From: Emcibacteraceae bacterium
GTDB lineage: Bacteria; Pseudomonadota; Alphaproteobacteria; Sphingomonadales; Emcibacteraceae
Assembly: GCA_041396985.1 (NCBI GenBank)
Contig: JAWKXO010000001.1
Coordinates: 59,778 to 123,777, forward strand
Length of the DNA: 64,000 bases
Direction of reading: 5' to 3'
This document shows, in pieces, positions 1 through 17,296 of this stretch (positions are counted from its first letter, which is position 1; each line of letters begins with the position of its first letter). The notes beneath the pieces were generated by a model, which was not told the origin of the DNA, made no database searches, and was given only the letters and a program-made list of their open reading frames with translations. The position numbers and the translations under genes are program-made.

Positions 1-885
1 GAAAAGTTCAAAAAAATCACCGCCATTGGTGAATTTGATAAAGAGCCAGACTTCACCGCATAAAATTGCCGCACAGGCCATAAAAATAACCCAGCCTTCA
101 AAATAATGCAGAAGACCATCGGCCATTCCACCACCCCAATATTCAACCAGAACACCAACCATGCCAATTCTGAAACTGTTCATGAAAATTGTAATCGGTA
201 TTGTCGAAATAAAAACAATTGCCCGTTGCCAAAATGGCGCTTTAAAAAGATATGCTACCAAAAACCCAAGACTGGTAAGCGGGTATAAATAACGAAGGCC
301 ACTACAGGCATCCACCACCTGAAGCTTATAACTGCCAAGATCAATTACATTTCCTTCGAGAAAGACGGGTATACTCAAAAGTCTTATAAAAAAGACTCCA
401 AGTTCCGAAGAAATAAGCTGAAGGCGCCAGGACATAATTGAATCAAGAAAATAAGGCATCGGAATTGCAAACAGCAAAAACAGAATTGGCAATGCTGTCA
501 GACGTAATAACGCCATGCCGCCAAAGACAAGGGAAATACCAAGCAGCGAAAGAATAAAGCCCGTCTGTACCAGAATAAATATGGCGCTTAGTTCCCCGAC
601 AAGCAGCATAAAGCCGGAGACCAGAATAACAGCAAAACCTGCCCACATTGGCTTGCCTATGCTGGCTGCCAGCGCATCTCGTCTGTCCCAAAGCATCCAG
701 AGCGATATAGCCGGAATCAGAAAACCATGGCTATACTCATCCTGTGTCAACCAGCGCCCATACTGGTTTAATAATCCACCACTGAATGCCGCCAGACTGA
801 AAAACAGCGAGACGCCAAGCAGGATAAACTGAACAGGATGCTGCCTGATTATATTGGGGTGTGCCGTGTCAGAAATAATACTCAT
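1..885 (-). CDS. Exosortase (EpsH/Xrt family), N-terminal 295 codons; the C-terminus lies beyond position 1
   Basis: Missing from the ORF track because no stop codon is reached inside the window. Manual reverse-complement translation from the ATG at 885-883 stays open to position 1: MSIISDTAHPNIIRQHPVQFILLGVSLFFSLAAFSGGLLNQYGRWLTQDEYSHGFLIPAISLWMLWDRRDALAAS... It has multiple hydrophobic helices. The exosortase signature residues occur in the expected order: VVDACSGLRYL (Cys), IFMNSFRIG (Arg), LLHYFEGW (His). Confidence 0.85.
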   Translation of the reverse strand, partial: MSIISDTAHPNIIRQHPVQFILLGVSLFFSLAAFSGGLLNQYGRWLTQDEYSHGFLIPAISLWMLWDRRDALAASIGKPMWAGFAVILVSGFMLLVGELSAIFILVQTGFILSLLGISLVFGGMALLRLTALPILFLLFAIPMPYFLDSIMSWRLQLISSELGVFFIRLLSIPVFLEGNVIDLGSYKLQVVDACSGLRYLYPLTSLGFLVAYLFKAPFWQRAIVFISTIPITIFMNSFRIGMVGVLVEYWGGGMADGLLHYFEGWVIFMACAAILCGEVWLFIKFTNGGDFFELF

Positions 886-999
886 CCATTTAATTTTTTA
901 TTGCGTTTTATAATTTGACGAGATTATCACAAAGAAAAGTAAAAAAACAGTGTATGTGGGCTCGATTAAATTATTAAGTTTATTGTCTATTTTATTGAT

Positions 1000-2094
1000 T
1001 TATTTTGTTTTATTGGTAGCGATATTGAAATCAAGGCAATTAAGATGAAATATTCTTTTAATGAATTTATTTGGATTTATCAGGGTTAATTTATGCCCAT
1101 TGCTTTCCATTTCTTCATTAAATAGCAATAATTGAGCCAAAATTGACGGATCAATATAACCGACTTTTGTCATATCCAGCTCAAAATCCCCGTCCCGTTT
1201 CAGAATTTCGTTAAACATAGCGATAATCCTGTCCCGTATTTCTATCGTCAGATCACCTTTTAATATTACGGTCTTTTTCTTAAAAACCGGCAAAATATAT
1301 GGCGTTGACCGGGTGGTGTGCCTTTTGATCAGAGATCTGTATGGCAAAATATTTTTAAAAATCAATTTTAGAAAGGCACAACCGTCATTCCAATATCTGC
1401 TGAATAATTCCGGTTCTTCCTTAATCCGCCATAGCCATTCCAGATGAAAATTCTGCACCCATTCCGGTGCTCTCTTCACATTCCCGGCAATGAAATTGAC
1501 AACTGCCCCAAGATGGCTGATCACATAAGCATTTAAACTGTCACGATTATTTTCAATCCAGGCCTGGCCTTTTTTCGCACCTAGCGAAACAATGATGAAG
1601 TCGGCTTTCGCTTCATTAATTTCATCAATAATTTCGTTGCTGCTCATGTCTTCGACACTGCCAAAGCCGGGGTTCAGGTAACCGACACTTTCCAGTCCGC
1701 ATTTTTTTTCATTTAATATTTCATGGGCTTGTTCCGCTATGCCATCCTGACCGCCAAAGAAAAAAACCTTTATCGGTTTTTTCCGGCAGCGGTCATCATA
1801 TTTCAGAAAATCAATAAGACTGGACCCCGCAACCCGTTTTCTGATGGGGATATCAAGCAGTTTACACATAAACACAATCGGCATGCCGTCTGCTATGCTT
1901 AAATCAGAATGGAGGACAGACTTTCTGAAATGTTCATCATGCTGACCGGCAATCAGGAAATTCAGGTTCGGTGTCGATAAAAATAATTTATTTCTATTGT
2001 TGATAGCGTCGATTATTTTTGTGGCCGTTTCCTCCATGGTCACGGCATCAAAGCTTAATCCCAACAAATTATATATATCACGGTCAGCGTTCAT
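1000..2094 (-). CDS. WecB/TagA/CpsF-family (GT26) glycosyltransferase fused to a C-terminal STAS-like domain
   Basis: 364 aa. The first ~255 aa show GT26-type blocks: LSTPNLNFL, IADGMPIV, VFFFGG, IIVSLGAKKGQAWI, LGAVVNFIAGNVKRAP, HLEWLWRI. The last ~100 aa read as a STAS/SpoIIAA fold: ILKGDLTIE...ELDMTKVGYIDPSILAQLLLF...LTLINPNKFIKRIFHLNCLDF. It overlaps the upstream GT2 gene by 11 nt. Confidence 0.8.
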   Translation of the reverse strand: MNADRDIYNLLGLSFDAVTMEETATKIIDAINNRNKLFLSTPNLNFLIAGQHDEHFRKSVLHSDLSIADGMPIVFMCKLLDIPIRKRVAGSSLIDFLKYDDRCRKKPIKVFFFGGQDGIAEQAHEILNEKKCGLESVGYLNPGFGSVEDMSSNEIIDEINEAKADFIIVSLGAKKGQAWIENNRDSLNAYVISHLGAVVNFIAGNVKRAPEWVQNFHLEWLWRIKEEPELFSRYWNDGCAFLKLIFKNILPYRSLIKRHTTRSTPYILPVFKKKTVILKGDLTIEIRDRIIAMFNEILKRDGDFELDMTKVGYIDPSILAQLLLFNEEMESNGHKLTLINPNKFIKRIFHLNCLDFNIATNKTK

Positions 2095-3007
2095 GGTGCG
2101 CCTGCTCCCACTTTGGCTTCATTGCGTCATTGATTTCATCAATGGCCCGCTTTTTGCCAACCACCAATGCCCTTCGCTGATATTTTCTGATAAATGAAAT
2201 CAGTTTTCTGTCTGATTGTTGCGGCTTTCGGCAAATCATGCTTTTAATAAATCCCCATGCCATAGCCAGCCCGCCAATAATATAGGGTGGCCGCACCATC
2301 CGGTATGCGGCGGTTGCCATAAAATATAGTATACTGCTTCCCATATAATATTGTCCGTATCCGTGGCGCATCCGGCCGGTCAGTATGCCATTCTGACTTG
2401 ATCCCATCGGTCTCAGATGGATAAATCTGATTTTCGGGTCATCACTGCTGCAGGCGATCCAGCCAAGAAATCGGCAGCGATGACAGTCTATCGCATCCCA
2501 CATGACTTCACGGACAAAGCCGCCTATTTCCTCAAAACATTGTCGGCGGTAAAATTTTGATGCACCAACACACATTTCATCGCCGCACTTTTCACTGACC
2601 TGTCTGTCACCATCCATATAATAGGGTTTTCCGCTGAAACAGCCAAGTCTTGGATTTTCTGCCATCTTTTCCATCAGAATTTTGAAATAATCGGATGGCA
2701 GGATCAGATCCATATCCAGTTTGCAGATATAGTCAAATTCAGCGGGATTTATACTGTCATAGCCTTTATAAAAAGCTTCAATCACGCCGGGTCCAACGGC
2801 GCGGGCGCCACGGTTTTCATTGGTGATCACCGAAATCCAGGTATATTTTTCAGCATACTCGCTCAGAATGTTCGCTGTTTCATCGGTTGAGCCGTCATCA
2901 ACAATAACCCATTTTTCCGGCAATATGCTTTGCCCGGCAACGCTGTCGAGCGTCTGGCGCATAAATTTTGCCTCATTCCGGCAGGGTGATATAATTAAAT
3001 AGCTCAT
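2084..3007 (-). CDS. Family 2 glycosyltransferase (GT-A fold) with a hydrophobic C-terminal part
   Basis: N-terminus ISPCRNEAKFMRQTLDSVAGQSILPEKWVIVDDGSTDET is a typical GT2 start. There is a DxD-like LDMDL, and the C-terminus is hydrophobic. Confidence 0.8.
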   Translation of the reverse strand: MSYLIISPCRNEAKFMRQTLDSVAGQSILPEKWVIVDDGSTDETANILSEYAEKYTWISVITNENRGARAVGPGVIEAFYKGYDSINPAEFDYICKLDMDLILPSDYFKILMEKMAENPRLGCFSGKPYYMDGDRQVSEKCGDEMCVGASKFYRRQCFEEIGGFVREVMWDAIDCHRCRFLGWIACSSDDPKIRFIHLRPMGSSQNGILTGRMRHGYGQYYMGSSILYFMATAAYRMVRPPYIIGGLAMAWGFIKSMICRKPQQSDRKLISFIRKYQRRALVVGKKRAIDEINDAMKPKWEQAHHER

Positions 3008-3016
3008 ATTCTCATC

Positions 3017-4219
3017 TTATCCGTTAAACAGCACTTCCAGCCTGTCAATATTAACATCGCGACCAAATTCGCTTTGAACATGGCTTGCCGCATTATCGAT
3101 AAGACTATGCTGAATGTCACGTTTTACTATTGCTTCCGCCAGTGCATCAGCGTCTTTCGGTTCAACCAGCAGACCGGTTTTCCCATCTATAATCAGTTCC
3201 GGTATCCCCGATATCCTTGTTGAAATAACCGCTAGACCAAGCATCATCGCTTCCATCAGCACAACGGGAATACCGTCCATGTCGCCATTTTTATCTTTCT
3301 GACAGGCCAAAACAAAAATATCATGTTTTGCCATCCATCGCCCCACATCCTTATTATCAAGGGCGCCGATCATTTCCACGCAGTCGGATACATTTTTCTC
3401 AGCAATTCTTTTTTCAATCTGCGTCCGTTCGGGTCCATCGCCGGCAATGGACAGTAATACCGGTACCCCTCTATCTTTTAAAAGCGCCACGGCGTCAATT
3501 AAGGTCAGCATCCCTTTCTTTTCCACCAGACGGCCCAGTGAACAAAGCCTGATTTTCTCGCTTGCCTCTTTTTCCGCCCCTTCATATTTCAGATCGACCC
3601 CGCAGCGCACAATGCGTATTTTGTTTGCCGGGAGGCCAATTTCCATTAAAAAGCGCCTGTTGAAATCGGAAATAGTGACAAAATATTTCGCACGCTCCGC
3701 TTTTCTTTTTAAAAGAAGGCCGTGTTCAAAAATATCATTGGCATGGGACGTTACAGTAAAGGGTTTATGACTGATGACCGACGCATACATGGCAACCTGA
3801 CATGGCACATTGGCAAAATGAACATGAATGTGTTCACAACCGTTTTTTATGAATAACCGCGCCGCCCGACAGGCAGCAAAAAACTGATAAATCAGCTTAT
3901 AAGCCGCCAGATTGAAAAGCCCAACATGAAAAAAATCTGATATCAATAGCCCCAGTGCTTTCACTGTCCCCAAAGGCCTTGTGAAAAGACACTGAAAAAA
4001 AGCAATGATAAAAATAATCACCCCATCCTTATAAAGATAATGAACAGGTCCCATTTTTTCTTTTACTGCGGGCGAAACATCCACAGGTTGATGAATTGAC
4101 AGGGGAAAAATTTTGTAACCACGCTCACGTAAGGAAAAAATTTCATTATAGACAAATGTTTCCGATAATGCCGGAATTGCGGGCGCCAGATAGGCGATAT
4201 TTTTCTCCTTAAGCGCCAT
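3017..4219 (-). CDS. Group 1 (GT4-like, GT-B fold) glycosyltransferase
   Basis: The C-terminal half carries the GT-B nucleotide-sugar motif: GRLVEKKG, then DGIPVVLMEAMMLGLAVISTRISGIPELIIDGKTGLLVEP (E-x7-E type). Confidence 0.8.
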   Translation of the reverse strand: MALKEKNIAYLAPAIPALSETFVYNEIFSLRERGYKIFPLSIHQPVDVSPAVKEKMGPVHYLYKDGVIIFIIAFFQCLFTRPLGTVKALGLLISDFFHVGLFNLAAYKLIYQFFAACRAARLFIKNGCEHIHVHFANVPCQVAMYASVISHKPFTVTSHANDIFEHGLLLKRKAERAKYFVTISDFNRRFLMEIGLPANKIRIVRCGVDLKYEGAEKEASEKIRLCSLGRLVEKKGMLTLIDAVALLKDRGVPVLLSIAGDGPERTQIEKRIAEKNVSDCVEMIGALDNKDVGRWMAKHDIFVLACQKDKNGDMDGIPVVLMEAMMLGLAVISTRISGIPELIIDGKTGLLVEPKDADALAEAIVKRDIQHSLIDNAASHVQSEFGRDVNIDRLEVLFNG

Positions 4220-4726
4220 TTATTTTGTCTCAACCTTTAACGGTGCAGCGGGTATGCCCACTACTGTCTGATTTGGGGCAACATCATTAAGTACGACGGC
4301 ATTTGCCCCTACCCGCGAATGATCCCCCAATGTAATTTCCCCCAGAATTTTTGCACCACAACCGATGTCAACATGCCCGCCAACTTTCGGGGCTCCACCG
4401 ATCAATGTTCCCAATGTCACCTGCTGAAAAATCAGACAGTTTGGGCCAATCACCGTAGCAGGATGAATGACAATCCCATTGGGATGGGGGATGAGAAGCC
4501 CGCCACCAATATTGCACATAAGATCAATTTCCGCCCCTGTCACCACCGACCAGAACCGATGGGACAGGACCCAATATTTTTGTGCTGCTTTGGTGAAGAA
4601 CCCTTTATGACCTTGCTCGAGCGCCTGATATTTTCTGATTGCCCGAAGCAACCGCCTTCCGGGATCCCAGAAACGTCTTGGCTTCTCCCGGCTCCAATCC
4701 GGTATTTCCGCTGATACTTCAGACAT
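4220..4726 (-). CDS. Hexapeptide-repeat O-acetyltransferase (serine-acetyltransferase-like left-handed beta helix)
   Basis: Repeats: GGGLLIPHPNGIVIHPATVIGPNCLIFQQVTLG...GGHVDIGCGAKILGEITLGDHSRVGANAVVLNDV. Its start directly abuts the stop of the upstream GT4 gene (4219/4220). Confidence 0.8.
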   Translation of the reverse strand: MSEVSAEIPDWSREKPRRFWDPGRRLLRAIRKYQALEQGHKGFFTKAAQKYWVLSHRFWSVVTGAEIDLMCNIGGGLLIPHPNGIVIHPATVIGPNCLIFQQVTLGTLIGGAPKVGGHVDIGCGAKILGEITLGDHSRVGANAVVLNDVAPNQTVVGIPAAPLKVETK

Positions 4727-4760
4727 TTATTTCCTGTTCCCGTCTTTCAATAGTGTAATT

Positions 4761-5762
4761 TTATTTATACTCGATGATATTTTGTTTGCTTCCGCTGATC
4801 TTACCGTAGTGATACTTTAAAAATCCTAAAAATTCCGGAATTTTATCAATCATACAAAATGTTGCATATAAAAACTTGTCCCCGGATGAATAAGGCATAT
4901 TCAATCCCTTATAAATTCTCAGTATCTGAATGGGAAAAAGCGCAAGAATAAAAAGAGCCAGTAAAGGATATTTCAAAAACGTAGCGATCAGGACAAGCGG
5001 ATAAAGTCCACCCCAAATCACCAGACTTTTTCGTTCTCTGGCCCAGCGCCCCCATTCCACAGCATTGGCATAGGAAAAACCGGTCCGGACCGATCTGATC
5101 CACCACGCATTATAATGCATCATGGCCGCATCATGAAAACCCATGGGCGCGTCAAGGCACATGATCTTCTGTCCCGCTTTTCTAAGGCGATGATAAAATT
5201 CCGGCTCTTCACCCGCAATCAGGTTTGTATTAAAGCCATCATGTTTACGGAATATATCTGCTCTGATGGTGGCAATGCCGCCGCAGGAATTAATTTCACC
5301 CGGCTTGATATACCACGCCATATCACATAGCCTGTTATAGAGCGTTAAGTCACGATATTTTTCACGAAGCCTCCCGCAAATGACCGCAACGTCCGCTGAA
5401 ACTTCAAAGGCGCTGATCGCATTTTCAAGCCAGTTTTCATCCAGTTCACAATCACCATCTATAAAATGCACATAATGAAGCCCCTCAACGGTTTCATTCA
5501 GGAACTTAAAACCGGCATTTCTGGCCCGGGCGGCGGTTAAGGGGCACTCTTGATCAAGCTCAATCACATTAATTTTAAAGGATTTTGCCAGATTGGCACT
5601 GCCGTCTGACGAACAGGAATCCACATAAACAATATGTTTGACACCAGAATTTAAAACTGATTCAATACAGGCTTTAAGCCGCTGACCTTCGTTACGGCCA
5701 ATAATGACGACCCCTGCATTTTTCAACATGCCGTTCTCTGTTACTGCATCATCTTTTGTCAT
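4761..5762 (-). CDS. Family 2 glycosyltransferase with C-terminal membrane segments
   Basis: VVIIGRNEGQRLKACIESVL...IVYVDSCSSDGS, DxD-like DGDCEL, hydrophobic C-terminus (LVIWGGLYPLVLIATFL...LFILALFPIQIL). Confidence 0.8.
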   Translation of the reverse strand: MTKDDAVTENGMLKNAGVVIIGRNEGQRLKACIESVLNSGVKHIVYVDSCSSDGSANLAKSFKINVIELDQECPLTAARARNAGFKFLNETVEGLHYVHFIDGDCELDENWLENAISAFEVSADVAVICGRLREKYRDLTLYNRLCDMAWYIKPGEINSCGGIATIRADIFRKHDGFNTNLIAGEEPEFYHRLRKAGQKIMCLDAPMGFHDAAMMHYNAWWIRSVRTGFSYANAVEWGRWARERKSLVIWGGLYPLVLIATFLKYPLLALFILALFPIQILRIYKGLNMPYSSGDKFLYATFCMIDKIPEFLGFLKYHYGKISGSKQNIIEYK

Positions 5763-5811
5763 TAGAATATTTTATAATGAAGTGGTTAAAATATTGATAG
5801 TTTTAAATTTT

Positions 5812-7041
5812 TTACTGGCTCTCACGGATAACTTCAATACCCGCCTGTTCCAGAAGAGCGCAAAAATTATCCGGCAAATGTAATCCCGTTCTGAAGTCTG
5901 ACATTTTCGGCGTCGGATTACTTTCCGGATAAAATACATCGCGCCCCAAAAGTATTTTCCCGATTTTTGGCCTGATATCATTTTGACACAGGGCACCAAG
6001 ATCAGCCTTTTTAATAAGGGAAGACATATTTGGTCCATGATAGGCTGATAAAACCAGCATATCCATTAGCCCTCTCAAAAATGACATATGTCCGCCCTGA
6101 AGGCTGCTGCAGACTTCCCAAACCCGCCGAATAACAATCGGCTGAAATTTGTGACCAATTTTCTTATTAATAAACTGCGGCAGGAGATATGAGAATTTTT
6201 TATAAAGACGCCTGACTGTTCGCTGCGGTTCTACATAGGGGGTAATAAAATTTTTCCAGTTATTGGTATAATAAACATCCCCAAGCTGGCCTTTCCAGAT
6301 AATGGCTTCATGCTGATAGGTGTCAGCTATTTTCCTTAAATCCGCCCCCCATCGCCAATGGGCCAGATCGGCCCGGCAACAGGCCTCAACAATTTCATAA
6401 TCAAGTTCGCCCCGGTCATTGGTATCATCCAGTTTCAAAACGTCTATATTCAGATTATTTTGAGCAACAAACTCTTTTACCAGTTGATAATTCGGCTCGG
6501 CACTTAAGGCAACGACCGGATTTTCCCAGGGTAGTAAAAGCAGGTTCATGCTGTCCTTACCGCCGCACATAATAATATTTGTTTTGCCGGGGTTTTTATC
6601 CTCTATTATTTTAATATCTTTTTTCAGAGCGTCTGCTGTCAATCGGCAATAGTCATCAATATCGGTTATGTCAAAGCAGCAGTCATGCGGCGCACCGATT
6701 TTCACAATTTCCTGATCAATGGTGTAATTTCCGGGATGGTTCGCGAAATTTTTTGCAAAAATAGTATCAACAGCCGTTTGATTGAGCTTCATGCTATTTT
6801 TAAGCACAATGAGCGCCAGTATGGAAAATGAATAATAGTTCTTATAACGATAGACATTATAAAATGACGGCAACCCTTCAAACTTATCCGCCTGCCAGAT
6901 ATAAATATCATGATGCTGCCATACCATTTCTTCGGTAAGGCAGGGTACCTGCCGGATCTCCTTTATCCTGTTTCTTAGATTTTCAATATAGTCAGTGACC
7001 ATTTCCTGATAACCCATTCTGCCCGATAATATCCACGCCAT
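5812..7041 (-). CDS. Uncharacterised protein with a PP-loop-like ATP-pyrophosphatase motif (paralog 2 of a tandem pair)
   Basis: The ORF-track start is 7041. Alignment with the upstream paralog (MVTDYIENLRNRIKEI versus MDYIEKIREKIKTP) suggests the real start is the ATG at 7002. The motif NIIMCGGKDSMNLLLLPW resembles the S-G-G-x-D-S PP-loop. Blocks are conserved with the neighbour along the whole length. Confidence 0.7.
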   Translation of the reverse strand: MAWILSGRMGYQEMVTDYIENLRNRIKEIRQVPCLTEEMVWQHHDIYIWQADKFEGLPSFYNVYRYKNYYSFSILALIVLKNSMKLNQTAVDTIFAKNFANHPGNYTIDQEIVKIGAPHDCCFDITDIDDYCRLTADALKKDIKIIEDKNPGKTNIIMCGGKDSMNLLLLPWENPVVALSAEPNYQLVKEFVAQNNLNIDVLKLDDTNDRGELDYEIVEACCRADLAHWRWGADLRKIADTYQHEAIIWKGQLGDVYYTNNWKNFITPYVEPQRTVRRLYKKFSYLLPQFINKKIGHKFQPIVIRRVWEVCSSLQGGHMSFLRGLMDMLVLSAYHGPNMSSLIKKADLGALCQNDIRPKIGKILLGRDVFYPESNPTPKMSDFRTGLHLPDNFCALLEQAGIEVIRESQ

Positions 7042-8203
7042 GCTTTTTTAGCAGGTCAATAAACTTTTCCGGTTTATGAGACCCTTCCCTAAAGCCCGAC
7101 AATTTCGGCGACGGGTTACTGGATGGATATATAACCGGTTTGCCATGAAGCATTTCCCCTATTTTCATTCTGACATCCTTTTGAACCGCTTTTGCCAGAT
7201 CAACAGAGGACAGGACTTTCTGCACATTTTTTCCATGGTATGCCGATAATACGAGAGTATCCGTTAACGCCCTGATAAAGGCCATATGATCCCCCTGCGA
7301 AATTGCCCCTTTATTCCATACTGTATCCGCAACCATCCTGCTTATCAAGTGTCCGAAAGGGACAGATAAAAACATGGGCAGATAGGGTGACAGTTTATTA
7401 TAAACTTTACAGAAAAAGAGCCTAGGTTCATTTTCCGGATAAATATAAGTCTTCCACCGTGGCGCGAAGTAAGCATCGGCCATCTGCCCTTTCCAGATAA
7501 TAAGCTTCTTCGAATAATCGTCCGTTATTTTTTTTATATGGTGTCCCCAGCGCCAATGAACGCTATCAAGCCTGCAGCATAATTCAGCGATTTCATCCTG
7601 CAGATAGTTTTCGTCAAAACTGTCTTCCAGAAGACGCACCTCTATATCAAGATTATTCTCTTTCACAAAGTCGCACACCAGCGGATAATTCGGTACAGCA
7701 CTATAGGCAACGACCGGATTTTGCCAGGGCAGCAATAGCAGGTTCAGGCTATCCTTGCCCCCGCACATAATCACATTGATAAATCCGGGATTAAGCTTTT
7801 CAATTTCAGCAATGTCCGTTTTAATGGCTTCAACCAGCATCCGGCAATAGTCTTCGGCATCCGTAATTTTTTCCGTAAAACCATGTGAAGCGCCAATTCG
7901 TTCAACATCCTGATCAATGGGTGTATCGTGTCCGAGCAAAATGAAGTCTTTTGCGTTTAATTTTTTGACAGCCGCCGGGTTTAAATGGAGAGTGTTTTTA
8001 TGAAGTATAAGTGCCAATGGCGAATAGGAATAATAGTTATTATATCGATAAACCGGATAAAAGGCGGGCATGCCATCAAACCTGTCTGCTTTCCAAAGCA
8101 ACGGTCCTTGATGCTGCCACATCATATCCTCCGTCAAAACGTCAACGGATTTTGGGGTTTTAATTTTCTCTCTGATTTTTTCAATATAATCCATAAGGAA
8201 CAT
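6992..8203 (-). CDS. Uncharacterised protein with a PP-loop-like ATP-pyrophosphatase motif (paralog 1 of a tandem pair)
   Basis: 403 aa. Motif NVIMCGGKDSLNLLLLPWQNPVVAYSA. Blocks shared with 5812..7041: YRYxNYYS, DYCR, CCRxDxxHWRWG, IIWKGQ, LVLSAYHG, YPxSNPxPKxSxFRxGxH. Confidence 0.7.
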   Translation of the reverse strand: MFLMDYIEKIREKIKTPKSVDVLTEDMMWQHQGPLLWKADRFDGMPAFYPVYRYNNYYSYSPLALILHKNTLHLNPAAVKKLNAKDFILLGHDTPIDQDVERIGASHGFTEKITDAEDYCRMLVEAIKTDIAEIEKLNPGFINVIMCGGKDSLNLLLLPWQNPVVAYSAVPNYPLVCDFVKENNLDIEVRLLEDSFDENYLQDEIAELCCRLDSVHWRWGHHIKKITDDYSKKLIIWKGQMADAYFAPRWKTYIYPENEPRLFFCKVYNKLSPYLPMFLSVPFGHLISRMVADTVWNKGAISQGDHMAFIRALTDTLVLSAYHGKNVQKVLSSVDLAKAVQKDVRMKIGEMLHGKPVIYPSSNPSPKLSGFREGSHKPEKFIDLLKKHGVDIIGQNGLSGNGH

Positions 8204-8220
8204 TCTTACCGAGGGACAGT

Positions 8221-9096
8221 TTAATGCCTGTCCTTATTTTTGGCCAAATAGTCTTTGATACCTTCCCGCATTTCATCACGGTCCATTGCAAAGGCAAGGT
8301 TTGCCAAAATAAATCCGGTTTTGTCCCCACAGTCAAAGCGCTCACCTTCAAAAAGCAGTCCGTGAAACGGAATATGACCCAGCATTTGTGCCATGGCGTC
8401 CGTTAATTGGATTTCCCCGCCAGCACCGATGACTTTTTTCTCAAGGTGGCTAAAAACTTCCGGCTGGAGTATATATCTGCCGATGATGGAAAAAGTGGAT
8501 GGCGCGTCTTTTGGATCCGGCTTTTCTACCAACCCTTTGACTTCAATAACCTTTCCTTCCCTGCTTGCAACATCAAGAATACCGTAGCTTGAGGTTTTTT
8601 CCCGCGGCACTTCCTCAATCGCCACCACATTGCCGCCTTTTTCATTATAAAGATCCATCATTTGCTTAAGGCAAGGACTTGAAGAATTTACCAGGTCATC
8701 CGCAAGCAATACTGCGAATGGTTCGTTACCGACAATATTCTTGGCACAGTATATTGCGTGTCCAAGTCCAAGTGCTTCCTGCTGGCGGGTATAGGATATG
8801 CTGCCCTCATTTGGCAAAAGATTTATCAGCTGATCCAGAATTTCCGTTTTATTTTTCTTGGCCAGCATATCTTCAAGTTCATAGGAATGATCAAAATGAT
8901 TTTCGATGGCAGCTTTTCCGCGGCCGGTCACAAAAATAATTTCCTCAATTCCGGCGGCTCTTGCTTCCTCAACCGCATATTGAATAAGCGGCTTATCAAC
9001 AACCGGCAACATTTCCTTGGGCATTGATTTTGTTGCCGGCAGGAACCTTGTACCCATACCACCGACCGGAAAAACGGCTTTTCTTACCGGTTTCAT
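8221..9096 (-). CDS. galU: UTP-glucose-1-phosphate uridylyltransferase
   Basis: KAVFPVGGMGTRFLPATKSMPKEMLPVVDKPLIQYAVEE is the canonical GalU N-terminus. 291 aa. It overlaps the pgi stop by 4 nt. Confidence 0.9.
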   Translation of the reverse strand: MKPVRKAVFPVGGMGTRFLPATKSMPKEMLPVVDKPLIQYAVEEARAAGIEEIIFVTGRGKAAIENHFDHSYELEDMLAKKNKTEILDQLINLLPNEGSISYTRQQEALGLGHAIYCAKNIVGNEPFAVLLADDLVNSSSPCLKQMMDLYNEKGGNVVAIEEVPREKTSSYGILDVASREGKVIEVKGLVEKPDPKDAPSTFSIIGRYILQPEVFSHLEKKVIGAGGEIQLTDAMAQMLGHIPFHGLLFEGERFDCGDKTGFILANLAFAMDRDEMREGIKDYLAKNKDRH

Positions 9097-10487
9097 TTTA
9101 CTTTCCCCTTATTTTTGGCGGACTGTTTCTTTCCACCTTTTTTTGGCAAAATATTGGCACCGGGAACAGAAATGGTCTGATTGACGTTATGAAGTCTCGA
9201 CAAATATTCCTTGGTCAGGTTCTTTCCATATTCAACGGATGGCTGATCATGCGGGTTAACCCCAAGCAGTTCCGCTGTTATGATTGTTTCCAGAATGAAA
9301 TGCATAATCAGCGCCCCTAATATGCGCTCATTAATTTCACGAATTTTAATCTGCCGGACGGGTTTGCCCCGCTCTCCCAAAGCTTCCACTGTGCTGTCTG
9401 CTTCTGCTTCTACCAGATCACCAATGGTTGAGCCGGCCATAAAATAAAAATCTTTATCATCAATCAGCATTGAATCGATGGTTGGCCCCTCACCCTTGCT
9501 CGAAACGGTGATGACGGTGAAATATTTATCATTTGGGCCATCAAGAAATAATTGAAGCTGGCTATGCTGATCCATCGGACCAAGCGCACTGAAAGGTGTT
9601 GTCCCCTTGCCTTTTTTACCAAGACTTTCCGCCCATAGTTGCTTGTACCAGTTTGAAAAGCCGGTCAGCCGGCATTCATACGGCATCATGACATTGATAT
9701 TAATATTGCGGCTTTTCTGTAGTTCATAAACTGCAATTGCCCCCATTGCCGGGGCCATTTCGGTAATTTTCTCTGCATTCATCATTCTGGTGAGAACCTG
9801 CTGTGCCCCATCACGCAAGGCAACAACGTCTAGCCCAACGATCATGGCCGGCAACAGTCCGACAATTGATAATACTGAAAACCGTCCTCCCAGATCAGGG
9901 TCATGATAATGTATAGGGAGCCGCCATTTAACCGCAAAATCGTGAAGGAAACTTTTCCCCGGCTGCACAATGACGGTAAAATGGTTCTGTACTTCATTAT
10001 CCCCAACAAGGGCTCTCATATAAGAAAAACAGGCCAGCATCTGGGCTATTGTTTCCGCTGTCCCACCGGATTTTGAAATGACCAGGAAGTGGGTATTCCC
10101 GAGGTCCAGCTCTGAAATAAGCTGATGCATTGTGTGGGGGCCAAGATTATCAGGAAAGTGAATTCGCGCCTTGCCATTTGGCACATAGAGCTGCTCACCG
10201 GTCAGCGCGACAAGCATTTGTGCACCAAGACTTGATCCCCCTGTACCAAGCACCACAACATCCTTAAATCGTTTTGAAATCCTGTCAGCGGTTCTGCGAA
10301 TATCCGTCAGGTCATCCCGCTCACTGGGAAGCTGAAGATAGGGGTATAAAAATTTACGTCTGTTGTTCCCATATTTGCGCTTTTCACGCAGCGTTGCTAA
10401 AAATTCTTTTACACGCTTTTCATAGCTGCTCAGATTAATATCATCATTGGCGTCAAAGATATTTTCAAACTGGGTTTCATATAACAT
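9093..10487 (-). CDS. pgi: Glucose-6-phosphate isomerase (short form) with a Lys-rich C-terminal tail
   Basis: SIS-domain motifs VLGTGGSSLGAQ and VISKSGGTAET, then a typical PGI C-terminal half. The tail reads ...ILPKKGGKKQSAKNKGKVK. Confidence 0.85.
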   Translation of the reverse strand: MLYETQFENIFDANDDINLSSYEKRVKEFLATLREKRKYGNNRRKFLYPYLQLPSERDDLTDIRRTADRISKRFKDVVVLGTGGSSLGAQMLVALTGEQLYVPNGKARIHFPDNLGPHTMHQLISELDLGNTHFLVISKSGGTAETIAQMLACFSYMRALVGDNEVQNHFTVIVQPGKSFLHDFAVKWRLPIHYHDPDLGGRFSVLSIVGLLPAMIVGLDVVALRDGAQQVLTRMMNAEKITEMAPAMGAIAVYELQKSRNININVMMPYECRLTGFSNWYKQLWAESLGKKGKGTTPFSALGPMDQHSQLQLFLDGPNDKYFTVITVSSKGEGPTIDSMLIDDKDFYFMAGSTIGDLVEAEADSTVEALGERGKPVRQIKIREINERILGALIMHFILETIITAELLGVNPHDQPSVEYGKNLTKEYLSRLHNVNQTISVPGANILPKKGGKKQSAKNKGKVK

Positions 10488-10620
10488 TTTCAGACTTTCA
10501 TACGCTTATGATCTTTGAACCCTATTAATAATAGGGATTTCTTTCATTTATATTAATATGCTTTGCTTATATACGCGAATTGATCAAATAAATCATTGTT
10601 TTAAATGAATTTTGAATATT

Positions 10621-11997
10621 CTAAACAATCAACGAAACCAATTTATTAAATATATATCCCGCTGCGCCGCCCACCAGCATAATCGGCAACATATAAAACT
10701 CTTTTAAGATATTTAAGACCCCAAGTTTATTTTTGAGGTAAAAATCCAATGGCAAGCTGCCAATTAGATATAATGCCAAAAGCCAGACTGCCCATTCAAA
10801 TCCCCCGACATTAAAAATAAACGGCAACCCGCCAAGCAAAATAACAGTATTAATGACGGCTTTAATTGATGGATATTTTGGTTTATCAACAGAAAAATAA
10901 AGTGCGTCTGAAATGCTGGTCCCTGTAAAAATAAGGGAAAATGAAAGTACAGAGAGCATCCAGCCGGCATCATGATAGCGCTGATCGAAAAGTAAGTTGA
11001 CGATTGCTCCTCCGGAAACAAATAAAAAACCTGCCAGCGACATTGATATGCCATCAGACACCCGCCTGACTTTATAGTAAATTGAGGCGATTTCCTTTTC
11101 ATTGTCGCGATTGATTTCACTGAACAGCGGAAAAAAGACGGTGAAATTTAATTTGAAAATAGCCTGATTGACAGCGGACGCCAGAAAATAAGCAATGGCA
11201 TAAATTCCAAGAATTTCTCCGGAGACCAGATTTCCCAGAATCAGCCTATCCCCCTGAGCCAGAAATGCTGATATTAAACTGGAAACCAGTATCCATTTAC
11301 CGTAATGAAAAATTTCCCAGAATACATCGCTTTTCCATTCAATCCGGCTTTTGGCCCCCGGAAACGAGGTATGGGACATAATTGTCATGATCAAGGAAGA
11401 CAGAACTGCCCCGGAGACAAGTGCCCAGACAGACCGTTCAATTAATAAAGCCCAGGCAATCATAATAAAAATACCGGCAATCTGGGAAAAGATCTGAATA
11501 ATCGTCAGCCTGCCCAGCAGCATTTTTCTGTTGGCGATAATAATGTTCATAGAAGAAAAGCCATTAATCAGTGACGTCAAAGACATCACGGCAATAATCA
11601 TAGGAAGCTCGGGCGCCGTATAAGCCGAGTTTTCAGAAAACAGTCCAAATTCATTTGCGACTTTTATAATAAGGGCAACCAGAAGAACCAGAACTGTAAC
11701 GATAGTCCCTCTTATAATCTGAATAGTCCAGGCCGTATTGATAAATTGTGGATCATCGCCGCGTCTGCTTCTTATGATGCTGGGTTTGATACCGATATCG
11801 GAAATCAGTGTCATCATAAATAAAAAAACCTGGGCCAAAGCCATAATTCCGAACATTTCCGGCACAAGCAACCGGGTCATTATCAGATTATTTGCCAGTC
11901 TTATTACCTGACTCATACCAAAACCGGTAAGCGCCCATAGTCCGGCTTTTATGACACGCGACCACAGGTTATTTTTATTTTCCAACCCATTTTCCAT
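10621..11997 (-). CDS. Wzx-like polysaccharide flippase (MOP superfamily)
   Basis: 458 aa and hydrophobic throughout, with about 12-14 helices. Its length, topology and position in an EPS locus fit Wzx-type oligosaccharide flippases. No catalytic motif can be verified. Confidence 0.7.
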   Translation of the reverse strand: MENGLENKNNLWSRVIKAGLWALTGFGMSQVIRLANNLIMTRLLVPEMFGIMALAQVFLFMMTLISDIGIKPSIIRSRRGDDPQFINTAWTIQIIRGTIVTVLVLLVALIIKVANEFGLFSENSAYTAPELPMIIAVMSLTSLINGFSSMNIIIANRKMLLGRLTIIQIFSQIAGIFIMIAWALLIERSVWALVSGAVLSSLIMTIMSHTSFPGAKSRIEWKSDVFWEIFHYGKWILVSSLISAFLAQGDRLILGNLVSGEILGIYAIAYFLASAVNQAIFKLNFTVFFPLFSEINRDNEKEIASIYYKVRRVSDGISMSLAGFLFVSGGAIVNLLFDQRYHDAGWMLSVLSFSLIFTGTSISDALYFSVDKPKYPSIKAVINTVILLGGLPFIFNVGGFEWAVWLLALYLIGSLPLDFYLKNKLGVLNILKEFYMLPIMLVGGAAGYIFNKLVSLIV

Positions 11998-12144
11998 GTC
12001 TGAACATCATTCCCGTTCTAAATTTTTTATTCATTAGACTTTTGTTTATCCGGCTCATATATAACATCAATTACCAATATATAATTGCAAATGCCAACTT
12101 TATATATCAATGTAGTGTTAATTTAATTAACGGACTGGAATTTA

Positions 12145-13671
12145 ATGTCAGAAGAAATTAGAGCGCTGATATTTATTGCTGTTATTGTCAGCGTTCCTCT
12201 CTTCCTGTTTTTACGCTATTCTTCTTCGGAAGGATTAAAACGGGACGTTAAAATCTGGATTTCTGTTTGGGTTTTTACCACGCTCCTCGCGTTTCTTGCG
12301 CCTAATTTCTGGATATATGCAGTCATCCTATCAATTTTTCTGATCTTTCTGACCAGGAATAAGCCCATTCTGAAATTATGCCTGTTTTTTCTGCTTTTGC
12401 CATCAATTCCTGCTGCTACGGTTATGGTGCCCGGCTTTGGCATAATCAATTATTTTATTTATACCGGACCGCATCATGTTATCATTCTGGTTCTGCTGTT
12501 ACCTCTGTTGATCAGCGGCAGACGAGGGTTAAATGCCACTAAATCAGTAAATATACTGGCGTTTGTTTATTTTTTGCTGCTCGCCGGCATTGCTTTCAGA
12601 GACACAAACGTTACCAATGCTCTTAGATTTACCACCATTACAGCACTGGCAACCATCATACCCTTTTATGCTGTTGGCAGATCGGTGCATAACACAGATG
12701 ATCTGAAGAAAATAATGTTTGCCGCCATATTGGGTATTTTTCTCCAATCCGTCATTGGCATCGCCGAAACCTTAAAAGGCTGGCATCTTTATAATGGGGC
12801 GATTAATTCCCTTGGCTTGAGATGGGGTGTGGGCAATTATCTTAGCCGAAATAATTTGTTACGCGCCTCTGCGGCTTTGGGCCACCCTATAGTACTAGGG
12901 TATATTTCAGCAATCGGCCTTGGGCTCTTTTTATATTTTTATCCGAAAGCACAAAAAAGAATGCGACAGCAGTATTGGATTGGTGTTGCTGTCTTTATTG
13001 GCGGTCTGCTTGCCAGTCTATCCAGGGGACCATGGGTTGGTGCATTTACCATGATACTGGTATTTTTCCTGACCGGGCAAAAAGCGGTCGGAAAACTTTC
13101 GAAATTTTTGGTTGCCGGTTTTTTAATACTTGCCTTATTATCAACAACCCAAGCCGGGAAAAGTTTCGTAGAGCTTATTCCCTTTGTCAGCAGTGATGAG
13201 AATATCCATGCGGTCAGCACGATTAGTTATCGTCAACAACTTCTTGACCAGTCATGGATTGTTATAAAAAGAAACCCGTTCTTTGGGTCTGCCAATTATA
13301 TGGATGCCCCCGAAATGGAAACAATGCGACAGGGCGAAGGAATTATCGATATTGTGAACAGCTATCTGCAGATAGCCCTTTCAAACGGACTGATCGGGCT
13401 AGGTCTGTTTTTATCAATTTTCGCCTCTATTCTTTATAAAATGTATAAATTAATGCCCACACTCAAACAAAATATAAAGTTCAGGGATCTGCTCCTGATG
13501 GACAGGGCCCTTTTTGCCACGATTATTGGTGTGATGGTTACGATCTTCACAATGAGCAGTATCAGTATTTCTCAGCAATATTATTGGAGCCTGCTCGGAC
13601 TGGCCTGTGCTTTCATCAGGATAGCCAAAACAGAACTGCTCAACCATATTCTGGAAACAAACCGAAGATAA
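12145..13671 (+). CDS. O-antigen-ligase/Wzy-like polytopic membrane protein (EPS polymerase or exosortase-associated O-glycosylation ligase type)
   Basis: 508 aa with 10 or more hydrophobic helices and a Wzy_C-like block LLASLSRGPWVGAF. It is the only plus-strand gene inside the minus-strand EPS operons. Confidence 0.7.
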   Translation: MSEEIRALIFIAVIVSVPLFLFLRYSSSEGLKRDVKIWISVWVFTTLLAFLAPNFWIYAVILSIFLIFLTRNKPILKLCLFFLLLPSIPAATVMVPGFGIINYFIYTGPHHVIILVLLLPLLISGRRGLNATKSVNILAFVYFLLLAGIAFRDTNVTNALRFTTITALATIIPFYAVGRSVHNTDDLKKIMFAAILGIFLQSVIGIAETLKGWHLYNGAINSLGLRWGVGNYLSRNNLLRASAALGHPIVLGYISAIGLGLFLYFYPKAQKRMRQQYWIGVAVFIGGLLASLSRGPWVGAFTMILVFFLTGQKAVGKLSKFLVAGFLILALLSTTQAGKSFVELIPFVSSDENIHAVSTISYRQQLLDQSWIVIKRNPFFGSANYMDAPEMETMRQGEGIIDIVNSYLQIALSNGLIGLGLFLSIFASILYKMYKLMPTLKQNIKFRDLLLMDRALFATIIGVMVTIFTMSSISISQQYYWSLLGLACAFIRIAKTELLNHILETNRR

Positions 13672-13677
13672 AAAACG

Positions 13678-14490
13678 TCAGGTATATCCGCGCCATTCAT
13701 CGTCGGATTTATTCAGGACGGTCCCAAGCAGTTTTTTGCTGCTTAAAAGGCGCATACTTTCTTCAATTTCCGATTTGGAGCACATCCCATTGCCCACCAC
13801 CAGCAAAACACAATCAACATTTGGCATAAAGGCAATAGCATCATCAGTCGCAAGAAGTGGCGGCAAATCAAATATAATAATTCTCGAAGCGTAGCGGTCT
13901 TTTACTTCCTCAACAAAGGCTGACATTTTTCTGGATGACATTAAAGCAGAACTATCCTTATAGGCTTTGTTATTTGGCAGCACTACAAGCCTTTGAATGC
14001 CTGGATTAACCAGCATTTCTTCCAGTTCTACCTTACCGTCAAAATAGTCCATTATTGAATGTTTGGTTATAAGTCCGAGATTCTTGGAAACTTCCGGTTT
14101 CTTAAGATCAAAATCGGCAAGCATGATTGAGAAATCATTATACCTTGCCATCGAAATCGCCAGGTTGACAGAGATAACCGTTTTTCCGCAGCCTTGCGTC
14201 GGTGATGTAACCGCAATAGTTTTCCAGCCGTTTTCCTGCATCTTTGATAATATTTTGGTTCTCAGAATGTCAAAAATGGTCGACTTTACATCCTGTTGAT
14301 TATAAACGATTATCCGGTGCTTTTCCAGATGAGCGGGGTCAAGGTCAACCGTTTTCGTATTGACATACGAAAATTCATCAAGACCTTTTGAAGCGCCATT
14401 TGACCTTTTATGCTTGCCGTTTTTCGGAGTAATGCCAGCAGCAAGGTTCTGTTTTTTTACTTTTTCAATGGCCTGTTTAATTCGCTCCAT
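13678..14490 (-). CDS. BY-kinase-like P-loop ATPase (exopolysaccharide / PEP-CTERM-locus tyrosine autokinase type)
   Basis: Walker A VTSPTQGCGKTVISVNLA, Walker A-prime MLADFDLKKP, Walker B RIIIFDLPPLL. The C-terminus ...KSDDEWRGYT holds one Tyr only. Confidence 0.8.
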   Translation of the reverse strand: MERIKQAIEKVKKQNLAAGITPKNGKHKRSNGASKGLDEFSYVNTKTVDLDPAHLEKHRIIVYNQQDVKSTIFDILRTKILSKMQENGWKTIAVTSPTQGCGKTVISVNLAISMARYNDFSIMLADFDLKKPEVSKNLGLITKHSIMDYFDGKVELEEMLVNPGIQRLVVLPNNKAYKDSSALMSSRKMSAFVEEVKDRYASRIIIFDLPPLLATDDAIAFMPNVDCVLLVVGNGMCSKSEIEESMRLLSSKKLLGTVLNKSDDEWRGYT

Positions 14491-14517
14491 TAAGCTTCCC
14501 TTTCAAATTGCTGGAAA

Positions 14518-16104
14518 TCAACTGATCCTCGACCAAACTTTAAAAAAGAAGATATCGAGCGGTAAATATAGGAAATGTACCAACACCAACGCACACACAA
14601 TACTGGCAACAGAAAACCCGGCAATTATCTTAATTCGGTTTTTGCTATGGGCTGTCTCTTCCCAGGTTTCAATATATGGAATATTAGCAAGCGGTTGCTG
14701 TTGGACTGCTTCGGTAAGTCGCGCCATGCCATAAACACTTCCATCAATCATTTCAATAAGGAATATGGCACCAACACCAGCCGCTACTGCGAGAAGGAAC
14801 CCCAGCATAATTATTTTCTGTCTGTTAGGGCGGATCGGTTTTTCTGCCAGAACCGGTGGCTCAAGCACCAGAAAGCGTTCCGCTTTCTTTTCCTCTTCCA
14901 GACTTTCAGAAAGCTGCGCATCCATAAGTTTTGCTTTGATGGATTCGTATTGCGCCAAAGCATTTTCATAATTCCGGTTAAGAGCCCTGAGCCCTCTTTC
15001 GACCTGAGGTGTCTGGATTATTGTTTTCTCCAGATCAGCGATATTTTTTTCCAGTTCTTTTTTAAGCGCCAATTGAGTTTTGATTGTATCGTCAATTGAT
15101 GCAATTCGCGCCTGTATTTTTGCTGCAACCGGGTCGCCAACAATTTCCGGTGAACCATCACCGCCTCCGCCTCCGGCAGCAATTTTTTCCTTTAGCTGAC
15201 TGATTTTTCGTTTCAGGGAAACAATATCAGGGTGGGCATCACCATAAATTGTTGATTTTTCTGCTAGCTGTGCCTCAAGTTTTGCCAGTTCCTGTTCCGG
15301 GTTGGCGGAAATTTCATTTTGGCCATTATCTGTGCTATATGTCCTTGAGGATAGATCAATTTCAAGCAGACTTTTTTGTGATTCAAGTGTTTTAATGGAA
15401 AGATCAATATCCTCAGCGGCCCGGACCGCACGCTCACGCTGATTAATGCGAAGGTCAAGATGTTCCGGCAATGCACTGCTATTTTGCTGTTTGTAGTCGG
15501 CTACCTGATTTTCAATATCTTCGAGCTGGTCTTTTAGCTTTGTTGTTTCGTTATTCAAAAAATCAGTTGTTTCAGAAGCGCGGGAAATTCTGTTTCTGAC
15601 ATTTTCATCCAGGAAAAGTGTCACAAATTCATTGGCAACACTAAACGCAAGATTGGGTTTGCTGTGCTCTACGGATATTCTAAAAGCAATTGCCGTTTTG
15701 CCATTATTCTTCTGGCCCTGAACGTCAGCGCTTATTATTTCCACTGAAACCATATTGCGCATCCGCTCAACCAGATCCGATGCCGGAATGCTTCTTCTGG
15801 CATCACCAAAAAGATTAAATTTATCAATTATTCTCAGAAGATTTTCCCGGATCATAACCCTTTGGGTAATCACGCCAATTCTTTCATCAGCATAACTGGT
15901 GACTGTTGATTGAACAAAATTATCCGGTATCTGTTGCGATTCAACCATAATTGTACCGGTGGACTGGTAAACCGGAGCCATAAGTAGCGCCACACCAATA
16001 CTCACTGCTAACACAAGTACAAACGGAATAATCAGAAATAGATATCGCCGCTTCAATATTGCGAAATAATCTCTTAACGTTAACTCTGCTTCAGAATATT
16101 CCAT
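14518..16104 (-). CDS. Polysaccharide chain-length determinant (Wzz/GumC-like, PEP-CTERM-locus type)
   Basis: N-terminal Wzz block LRDYFAILKRRYLFLIIPFVLVLAVS...PVYQSTGTIMVE. A long coiled-coil periplasmic region follows, with a GGGGGDGS run. C-terminal TM segments are present. Confidence 0.85.
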   Translation of the reverse strand: MEYSEAELTLRDYFAILKRRYLFLIIPFVLVLAVSIGVALLMAPVYQSTGTIMVESQQIPDNFVQSTVTSYADERIGVITQRVMIRENLLRIIDKFNLFGDARRSIPASDLVERMRNMVSVEIISADVQGQKNNGKTAIAFRISVEHSKPNLAFSVANEFVTLFLDENVRNRISRASETTDFLNNETTKLKDQLEDIENQVADYKQQNSSALPEHLDLRINQRERAVRAAEDIDLSIKTLESQKSLLEIDLSSRTYSTDNGQNEISANPEQELAKLEAQLAEKSTIYGDAHPDIVSLKRKISQLKEKIAAGGGGGDGSPEIVGDPVAAKIQARIASIDDTIKTQLALKKELEKNIADLEKTIIQTPQVERGLRALNRNYENALAQYESIKAKLMDAQLSESLEEEKKAERFLVLEPPVLAEKPIRPNRQKIIMLGFLLAVAAGVGAIFLIEMIDGSVYGMARLTEAVQQQPLANIPYIETWEETAHSKNRIKIIAGFSVASIVCALVLVHFLYLPLDIFFFKVWSRIS

Positions 16105-16118
16105 TTCAATTCGGCCTT

Positions 16119-17264: not shown

Positions 17265-17296
17265 TTTTGATCACCCTTATCTGATTTTAAAATAAT

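Follow-up and report, generated by a model that had tools for sequence, protein, structure and literature searches.

Does the exopolysaccharide (EPS) cluster at one end of a 64,000-nucleotide stretch of an Emcibacteraceae genome also encode a protein-sorting system and, if so, with which enzyme and which substrate? The stretch, called here the window, covers positions 59,778 to 123,777 of contig JAWKXO010000001.1 (assembly GCA_041396985.1). An earlier note on its letters had proposed that an exosortase gene runs off the first base on the minus strand, and that the first 20 kb form an exosortase/PEP-CTERM sorting locus rather than a generic EPS cluster. Exosortases are membrane enzymes presumed to remove a C-terminal anchor from exported proteins. 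We find it very probable that window 885..1 on the minus strand is the 5' part of an XrtD exosortase gene of a marine alphaproteobacterium and that the first 20.7 kb are a sorting locus. The gene lies at one end of the EPS cluster, and a gene 17 kb away in that cluster, whose 173-residue product is annotated as a hypothetical protein, encodes the candidate substrate.

The exosortase gene at the window edge

Translation of the reverse complement of window positions 1..885 yielded 295 codons without a stop from the ATG at 885..883. Upstream, an in-frame TAA (900..898) is followed by no start codon before this ATG, which is therefore the first possible start; the same start position is used in orthologs of the gene. 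The window thus holds the 5' 885 nt, while the remainder, estimated from an ortholog as a linker and an EpsI domain of about 231 codons, lies beyond base 1. The gene is missing from the list of open reading frames (ORFs) because those running off either end of the source were not listed. The listed ORFs of at least 60 amino acids (aa) over the same bases, at 106..288 (plus strand), 443..691 (minus strand, different frame) and 515..832 (plus strand), overlap a frame with a 228-bit Pfam match and are therefore shadow ORFs. A chance open frame was excluded by E-values of 1.2e-67 for Exosortase_EpsH and 6e-92 for XrtD, and by 2232 homologs at E <= 1e-20. The open frame, its absence from the ORF list and the three shadows had all been read correctly in the earlier note.

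The encoded protein was compared with profile hidden Markov models. It matched Pfam PF09721 (Exosortase_EpsH) with 228.4 bits (cutoff 25.7) over profile positions 5-254 of 254, and the whole catalytic domain is therefore inside the window. The general exosortase model of NCBIfam, TIGR02602, gave 167.9 bits (cutoff 105.55), and the exosortase/archaeosortase signature TIGR04178 gave 70.6 bits (cutoff 23) over residues 188-281. With all three models above their curated cutoffs, the exosortase identity proposed from the letters alone holds.

Assignment to the XrtD subtype

The definition of XrtD used here is the name of the NCBIfam model together with its cutoffs. The best subtype model of the fragment was XrtD (TIGR04152), with 309 bits over profile positions 3-247 of 486, followed by XrtW (191 bits) and XrtA (178 bits). 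A scan of reference genomes recovered a 345-kb contig of a Kordiimonadaceae metagenome-assembled genome (MAG), JACKKT010000001, hereafter L008, which is collinear with window 2..10881 at 92% DNA identity (10.9 kb) and whose ortholog stands in for the full-length window gene. This ortholog has 526 aa and differs from the 295 window residues by 10 substitutions (97% identical) and no indel, none of the substitutions falling in the catalytic motifs. It scored 574.6 bits on XrtD (cutoff 400) and 137.6 bits on EpsI (TIGR02914, residues 348-524), and remained below the XrtA cutoff (175 vs 208 bits) and the XrtW cutoff (311 vs 425 bits). As both the fragment and the L008 ortholog fail the curated cutoffs of XrtA and XrtW, these two assignments were rejected. 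The window copy was called XrtD because XrtD is the best subtype of the fragment and the near-identical ortholog passes the cutoff; the subtyping suggested in the earlier note was thus achieved through the full-length L008 protein.

Orthologs are typically 515-526 aa long and most other homologs 505-517 aa, with PF09721 and PF11984. Those named by the source (JGI or NCBI) bear the name exosortase D (VPLPA-CTERM-specific). The L008 ortholog has the architecture of the TIGR04152 family, an exosortase domain fused to an EpsI domain. The window system differs from this family in three ways: of about 526 residues, the first 295 alone are encoded within the window; the tail of the candidate substrate gives no match to the VPLPA-CTERM model; and the accessory genes and the regulation look XrtA-like.

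Since the C-terminal 231 codons lie past base 1, the window copy could also be read as a pseudogene, or as a gene that is incomplete in the genome and not merely cut off by the window. We consider this extremely improbable. The 295 codons are free of stops, and comparison with the 97% identical ortholog over the same residues, a check proposed with the original reading, revealed neither a stop nor an indel and no change in the catalytic motifs. The usual ortholog length is 515-526 aa. The source contig measures about 956 kb and, to judge by the locus tag R3D86_00330 of the candidate substrate, roughly 50 further genes should lie past base 1.

A 4.5-kb contig from a MAG labelled 'Promethearchaeota archaeon' (JAEORV010000233.1) also encodes an exosortase of XrtD type, with 58% identity to the window protein; most likely this is a bacterial contig placed in the wrong bin.

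Catalytic motifs and predicted structure

The exosortase family is characterised by three invariant motifs, Cys-x-Gly, Asn-x-x-Arg and His-x-x-x-Gly, each placed towards the outer end of one of three successive helices (PMC1569441). The edge protein contains exactly one CxG motif (Cys194-Ser-Gly, residues 194-196; Cys194 codon at 304..306, minus strand), an NxxR motif at Asn236-Ser-Phe-Arg239 (Arg239 codon at 169..171, minus strand) and one HxxxG motif (His260-Tyr-Phe-Glu-Gly264; His260 codon at 106..108, minus strand), in this order. Cys194 is the proposed nucleophile. The contexts VVDACSG, MNSFRIG and HYFEGW and the N-terminal block RWLTQDEYSHGFLIP (residues 44-58), which had been put forward as exosortase hallmarks in the right order, are all present and match the published motifs. 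In an alignment of 53 XrtD-type proteins, 54-90% identical to the window protein, residues C194, S195, G196, N236, R239, H260, E263 and G264 are invariant, and likewise the N-terminal E50-Y-x-H-G...I-P58 block; the Cys, Arg and His positions thus withstand a proper alignment.

In the archaeosortase ArtA, mutagenesis shows that Cys173, Arg214 and Arg253 are critical (PMC9263693). As Cys173 and Arg214 are essential in ArtA, the roles of the Cys and the Arg are experimentally supported within the superfamily; a catalytic role of His260 is proposed from its conservation alone. Cysteine-dependent cleavage of the sorting signal is known only for ArtA (PMC9263693); according to Haft's preprint, it also occurs with XrtA and XrtB. 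ArtA and its PGF-CTERM substrates in Haloferax volcanii share with the window system a homologous enzyme family, a tripartite signal and the equivalent Cys and Arg, which are essential there (PMC9263693). Unlike the window system, ArtA is archaeal, leads to lipid anchoring and has no outer membrane or EPS context, and its third critical residue is Arg253, as against His260 for the third invariant motif residue of the window protein.

The AlphaFold2 (AF2) model of the 295-residue fragment is polytopic and alpha-helical, with a mean predicted local distance difference test score (pLDDT) of 88.3 and a predicted TM-score (pTM) of 0.81, and displays a small beta-hairpin directly before the Cys194 helix. 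Members of the superfamily are polytopic helical membrane proteins with about 8 transmembrane segments. A hydropathy scan, too coarse for counting such segments, detected 10 overlapping windows above threshold, corresponding to 6 distinct hydrophobic regions. Both results agree with the polytopic protein anticipated from the letters. No sequence homolog of the edge protein was found in the PDB, and no fold match to the model was obtained among solved structures (best E 1.1).

A candidate substrate in the same locus

Two independent six-frame scans of the 64 kb detected a single credible C-terminal tail made of a motif, a helix and a basic cluster. It belongs to a 173-aa ORF at 18287..18808 on the minus strand, whose product starts with a Sec-type signal peptide (MFKK...AVSGAQA, followed by VSV), continues with a passenger domain of about 120 residues and ends with the tail VPLPP-ALIAFSTAMLGVGFLA-RRRRK-TKAVFA, the basic cluster standing 7 residues from the end. 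The protein thus combines the tripartite layout of a sorting signal with an N-terminal signal peptide. The NCBI record for the identical protein reads 'hypothetical protein' R3D86_00330. In the AF2 model, residues ~30-140 form a beta-sandwich core with pLDDT above 90 and residues 149-172 form a helix. The PDB neighbours of this model are generic beta-sandwiches (PPC domain, ColG collagen-binding domain, CBM6/35, BcsB) with low TM-scores; as the matches are only of this kind, carbohydrate binding is not claimed for the protein.

Eighteen homologs were collected from Emcibacteraceae-like MAGs (36-82% identity). Their passenger domains fall to 36-40% identity, while V142-P-L-P-P146 and I149-R164 are invariant except for one S/G position. 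A tail that stays frozen while the passenger diverges is more in keeping with a recognised signal than with a generic anchor. The opposite view would be that the 173-aa protein is a plain C-terminally anchored inner-membrane protein, or the substrate of another protease, and that the exosortase plays another role in the EPS pathway. It is favoured by the curated sorting-domain models, which all remain under cutoff on the tail, and by the literature searched, in which no demonstration of exosortase cleavage was found for any VPLPA-class protein. We nevertheless regard it as very unlikely: 26 invariant residues are unexpected for a generic anchor when the passenger drops to 36% identity, relatives of the protein carry recognised VPLPA-CTERM and PEP-CTERM-family tails, and the gene has the architecture of the PEP-CTERM regulon and a fixed place in an XrtD-containing cluster.

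At least three further genomes carry the 173-aa family and XrtD on one contig, as judged by matching contig names and lengths. From the conserved tail and this association, we consider the 173-aa protein likely to be the cognate substrate of the window XrtD. In two of the four other loci with conserved gene order (L083 to L086), a second paralog directly follows the first (L083 10661..11164 and L084 10698..11207). It ends with NPLPPSV..FMSAM...RRRR, is 28-30% identical to the 173-aa protein and is preceded by a terminator-like hairpin. This NPLPPS-tail paralog is absent from L085, L086 and the window, which holds no remnant of it.

Classification of the sorting signal

The motif in the 173-aa tail is P-L-P-P and not P-E-P, and no curated sorting-signal model exceeded its cutoff on the tail. 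It came just short of IPTL-CTERM (20.4 vs cutoff 20.5 bits) and of PEP-CTERM, and these near-matches span only the helix and the basic part. The paralog in L083 reaches 12.4 bits on the VPLPA-CTERM model TIGR03370 (cutoff 25.35). As a control, five tails from other XrtD loci were submitted to TIGR03370 and only one passed, so that this model is narrow. Tails of the VP[LIV]P[AG] type occurred within 10 kb in about 17 of 81 XrtD-type loci.

We then considered the whole protein. It reached 26.2 bits on the FxDxF PEP-CTERM model (NF038126, cutoff 50) and 24.5 bits on PepA (NF033554, cutoff 80). With a profile built from the 18 homologs, a search of 1.84 billion cluster representatives retrieved 825 proteins at E <= 1e-3, nearly all of 170-220 aa and ending with [VT]P[LIV]P[PAG]A..LFG[ST]AL...RRRR. 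Among 100 of these relatives, 80 showed a weak match to PepA, 70 a match to FxDxF and 28 a match to VPLPA-CTERM (the last counted with TIGR03370 at E <= 0.01, best 8.5e-8). Because the relatives grade into the PepA and FxDxF models, the 173-aa protein is a remote member of a PepA/FxDxF-like group of small beta-sandwich proteins. Judged by sequence, its signal is a clade-specific variant of the VPLPA class for which XrtD is named.

PepA of Aquincola and Zoogloea (NF033554; PMC9850573) and the FxDxF family resemble the 173-aa protein in being small secreted proteins with a tripartite C-terminal signal. The pepA gene also resembles the 173-aa gene in its RpoN-type promoter, in the terminator that follows it and in its location inside or next to an EPS/prsT locus. 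In contrast, the 173-aa protein scores far under the cutoffs of both families (80 and 50 bits) and its signal motif differs. A function like that of PepA is suggested by analogy.

Regulation of the candidate substrate gene

The 173-aa gene is monocistronic. It is preceded by an AT-rich spacer of 431 nt and followed by two hairpins with T runs that resemble intrinsic terminators, at 18189..18248 on the minus strand (3 sites vs 0.7 expected from shuffles). Within the spacer, a sigma-54 type -24/-12 element, TGGCATGATTATTGCT, was identified at 18891..18906 on the minus strand, ending 82 nt upstream of the ATG. It is the sole match to TGGCAY-N5-TTGCW in the 64-kb window, and each of the orthologous spacers contains a perfect TGGCAC-N5-TTGCW at -84 to -111. 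Some 63 nt further upstream, the block AACTGTTAAAAATCTTTACAA (18970..18990, minus strand) ends with TTTACA and is nearly invariant in the four orthologous spacers; it is a putative site for an enhancer-binding protein of PrsR type. A second upstream block, GTGTCCCAAAGTAGGA (GTGTCCCAAAGTaGGA), at 19003..19018 on the minus strand, is conserved in all four spacers. A further block, ATGAATAAGCrATTAATA, at 19155..19172 on the minus strand, lies 364 nt upstream of the substrate ATG, near the start of the priming-transferase gene, and is invariant in four genomes. The latter two blocks may be a second activator site, a site for integration host factor or the promoter of the divergent gene.

In PEP-CTERM genes, a 17-nt motif 1 ending with TTTACA (the predicted PrsR site) is separated by a mean spacer of 62.8 nt from a sigma-54 site (motif 2), which averages 71 nt from the start codon (PMC1569441). 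The 173-aa gene has the same layout of a single gene, a long spacer, TTTACA and a sigma-54 box, and the match appears close as judged on the spacing and the TTTACA end, not on the published logo base by base. In Aquincola, transcription of pepA is RpoN-dependent, and overexpression of pepA brings the flocs back and turns soluble EPS into cell-bound EPS (PMC9850573). Under a strict pattern, by which divergent sites are missed, the sigma-54/TTTACA arrangement was present in 1 of 20 VPLPA-tail genes of other XrtD loci; it is therefore not a general feature of XrtD systems. After a report in Methylophaga, a riboswitch for cyclic di-GMP in the 431-nt leader was also considered, and was rejected as 17800..19300 contained no Rfam match at E <= 1.

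Several parts of the locus thus recall the XrtA/PEP-CTERM/PrsK-PrsR-PrsT system (PMC1569441). In both, the exosortase is encoded within an EPS cluster, the substrate forms a single-gene operon with a long spacer, in which TTTACA precedes the sigma-54 box by about 63 nt, and genes for a PrsT-like tetratricopeptide repeat (TPR) protein and an ATPase stand beside the sortase, as seen at the L008 locus. The differences are that the sortase is under the XrtA cutoff, that P-L-P-P replaces P-E-P, that the accessory proteins score under the equivalog cutoffs of the XrtA system, and that PrsK/PrsR are absent among the window and L008 genes examined.

Proposed pairing of enzyme and substrate

This resemblance raises the possibility that the edge gene encodes an XrtA- or XrtW-type enzyme acting on PEP-CTERM proteins encoded elsewhere, the 173-aa neighbour being incidental. 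Models of the XrtA system are the best for the tyrosine kinase, the chain-length determinant and the exporter of the cluster, all under cutoff (156/231, 254/279 and 111/180 bits), and PrsT-like and ATPase genes follow beyond the edge. Moreover, the control region of the 173-aa gene is of the type described for PEP-CTERM genes, and the fragment itself reaches 178 bits on XrtA. We still find this explanation quite unlikely. Fragment and ortholog stay at 178/175 bits on XrtA (cutoff 208) and at 191/311 bits on XrtW (cutoff 425), against 574.6 bits for the ortholog on XrtD (cutoff 400); the six-frame scans recovered no PEP-motif tail in the window; and an invariant tail beside a co-inherited XrtD argues for a specific pairing.

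We therefore return to an XrtD enzyme paired with the 173-aa protein, against which the following points must be set. The fragment alone is under the XrtD cutoff (309 vs 400 bits) because the window edge leaves half of the profile covered, and a frameshift may be present downstream, in the last ~231 codons. The 64 kb were taken from a contig of at least 956 kb, and other exosortases or substrates may exist elsewhere. On the side of the signal, the VPLPA-CTERM model TIGR03370 gave no match at E <= 10 on the 173-aa tail (VPLPPALIAFSTAML...), and the PEP-CTERM model TIGR02595 (cutoff 16) gave 12.4 bits on the whole protein and 15.3 bits on the tail alone. On the side of regulation, the count of the sigma-54 pattern is unremarkable, with 0.34 matches expected per window and at least one match in 26 of 100 shuffles. 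Neither the window genes examined nor the 10 kb beyond XrtD in L008 yielded PrsK/PrsR, rpoN or another sigma-54 activator. Finally, no experimental work on any XrtD was found in the literature searched.

By extension from the exosortase/archaeosortase/PEP-CTERM model, we infer the pairing, a cleavage, an acceptor and a role in the matrix as follows. A PrsR-like enhancer-binding protein acting on the sigma-54 promoter would switch on the monocistronic 173-aa gene. Exported by Sec, the protein would remain anchored in the inner membrane through the C-terminal helix and the Arg cluster. XrtD would recognise VPLPP and the helix at the periplasmic face and cleave at or near VPLPP by means of Cys194, Arg239 and His260. 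The beta-sandwich passenger would then be released, or transferred to an acceptor, and would join the exopolysaccharide made by the same cluster, where it might help to keep the polymer on the cells, as PepA does in floc-forming bacteria.

The description of the first 20 kb as an exosortase/PEP-CTERM locus rather than a generic EPS cluster is supported, with refinements. Its sorting part stands, with an exosortase and a candidate substrate. It is not a matter of one or the other, for a real Wzx/Wzy EPS cluster is present too. The signal is of the VPLPA class and not PEP, and the accessories are under the cutoffs of the XrtA system. One may regard the first 20.7 kb as a single unit that makes a polysaccharide and sorts a protein.

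XrtD already has a curated family of its own, loci that join exosortases with EPS genes are well documented, and the standard NCBI pipeline would name the edge gene from the same model; the understanding of how exosortase systems work is unchanged by this locus. What is new is the unannotated probable substrate, a signal variant missed by the curated models, and the combination of an XrtD enzyme with regulation and accessories of XrtA type. In terms of annotation, the window-edge gene was recovered and subtyped, and a 'hypothetical protein' becomes a probable exosortase substrate, illustrating that a cognate sorting signal can fall just under every curated C-terminal-domain model. In a recent survey, many exosortase-bearing alphaproteobacterial genomes had no PEP-CTERM model match, and divergent signals such as the tail of the 173-aa protein may partly explain this. 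With a single sortase, a single and strongly conserved substrate, and a promoter that can be recognised, such a compact locus would also be a convenient starting point for work on XrtD. More speculatively, and with considerable doubt, the Emcibacteraceae/Kordiimonadaceae clade might run a minimal dedicated XrtD system on XrtA-type regulation (PrsR/sigma-54) and EPS machinery, with one enzyme, one or two substrates and the whole 26-residue VPLPP-plus-helix as signal. If this were true, such a system would be an unusually clean natural model for intramembrane signal recognition by an exosortase, and many genomes described as having an 'exosortase without PEP-CTERM' would have substrates that current models miss.

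The exopolysaccharide cluster and neighbouring genes

Matches to NCBIfam and Pfam delineated a Wzx/Wzy-type EPS cluster with XrtA-system-like parts within bases 1-20.7 kb. Its biosynthesis and export genes extend over 1000..17860, with the Wzy_C polymerase on the plus strand. The first part encodes a WecG/TagA-type glycosyltransferase with a STAS domain, glycosyltransferases of families GT2 and GT4, an acetyltransferase, a second GT2 and two PP-loop-like paralogs. These are followed by GalU, PGI, a Wzx (MOP) flippase, the Wzy_C polymerase, a tyrosine autokinase and a chain-length determinant, and finally by a 381-aa protein resembling outer-membrane proteins and a short Wza-like exporter. The priming enzyme, an undecaprenyl-phosphate glucose phosphotransferase of WcaJ type (TIGR03023, 497 bits, cutoff 411), is encoded at 19240..20688 on the plus strand; its gene, which is divergent, delimits the locus on this side. 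From 20696 onward come glpT, glpQ and glpD, then unrelated housekeeping genes.

The gene order of the EPS locus is conserved in L083-L086. The fixed order in the orthologous loci is: priming transferase, spacer of ~410-450 nt, substrate gene, Wza-like gene, a gene for an unknown protein of ~375 aa, Wzz, kinase and Wzy. On the other side, L008 11591..14992, directly downstream of XrtD, encodes a PrsT-like TPR protein (811 aa; 271 bits, cutoff 312) and an XrtA-system-like AAA ATPase (312 aa; 287 bits, cutoff 324.5). The presence of these two genes past XrtD in L008 indicates that the sorting locus extends beyond the window edge. After the ATPase, L008 carries two convergent 869-aa genes, one of them acyl-CoA-ligase-like.

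The STAS domain, of the anti-sigma-antagonist or sulfate-transporter type, is not usually joined to an enzyme of the WecG/TagA/CpsF type. The protein encoded at 1000..2094 (minus strand) joins a glycosyltransferase of this type (residues 63-233) to a STAS domain at its C-terminus (residues 278-358), and the L008 ortholog (364 aa) shows the same fusion. At 5812..7041 and 6992..8203 (minus strand), two tandem paralogs of 409 and 403 aa overlap by 50 nt and are conserved in L008. Neither has a Pfam or NCBIfam match; the PP-loop-like motif MCGGKDS in both suggests sugar-modifying enzymes of ATP-pyrophosphatase type (amidotransferase-like). The 381-aa protein encoded at 16119..17264 (minus strand) has a signal peptide, a C-terminal ...SISIAY and the look of an outer-membrane beta-barrel, and gave no family match at E <= 10. 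In all orthologous loci, the Wza-like gene and the gene for the chain-length determinant flank a counterpart of 370-380 aa without Pfam match, and the 381-aa protein may be an outer-membrane component of the export or sorting route.

Outside the cluster by a few kb, a 799-aa subtilase (Peptidase_S8) is encoded at 25129..27528 on the plus strand, and L083 also has an S8 peptidase, of 782 aa, near its EPS cluster. The sole Rfam match in the 64 kb was a single tRNA gene at 53589..53659 on the plus strand (62 bits).

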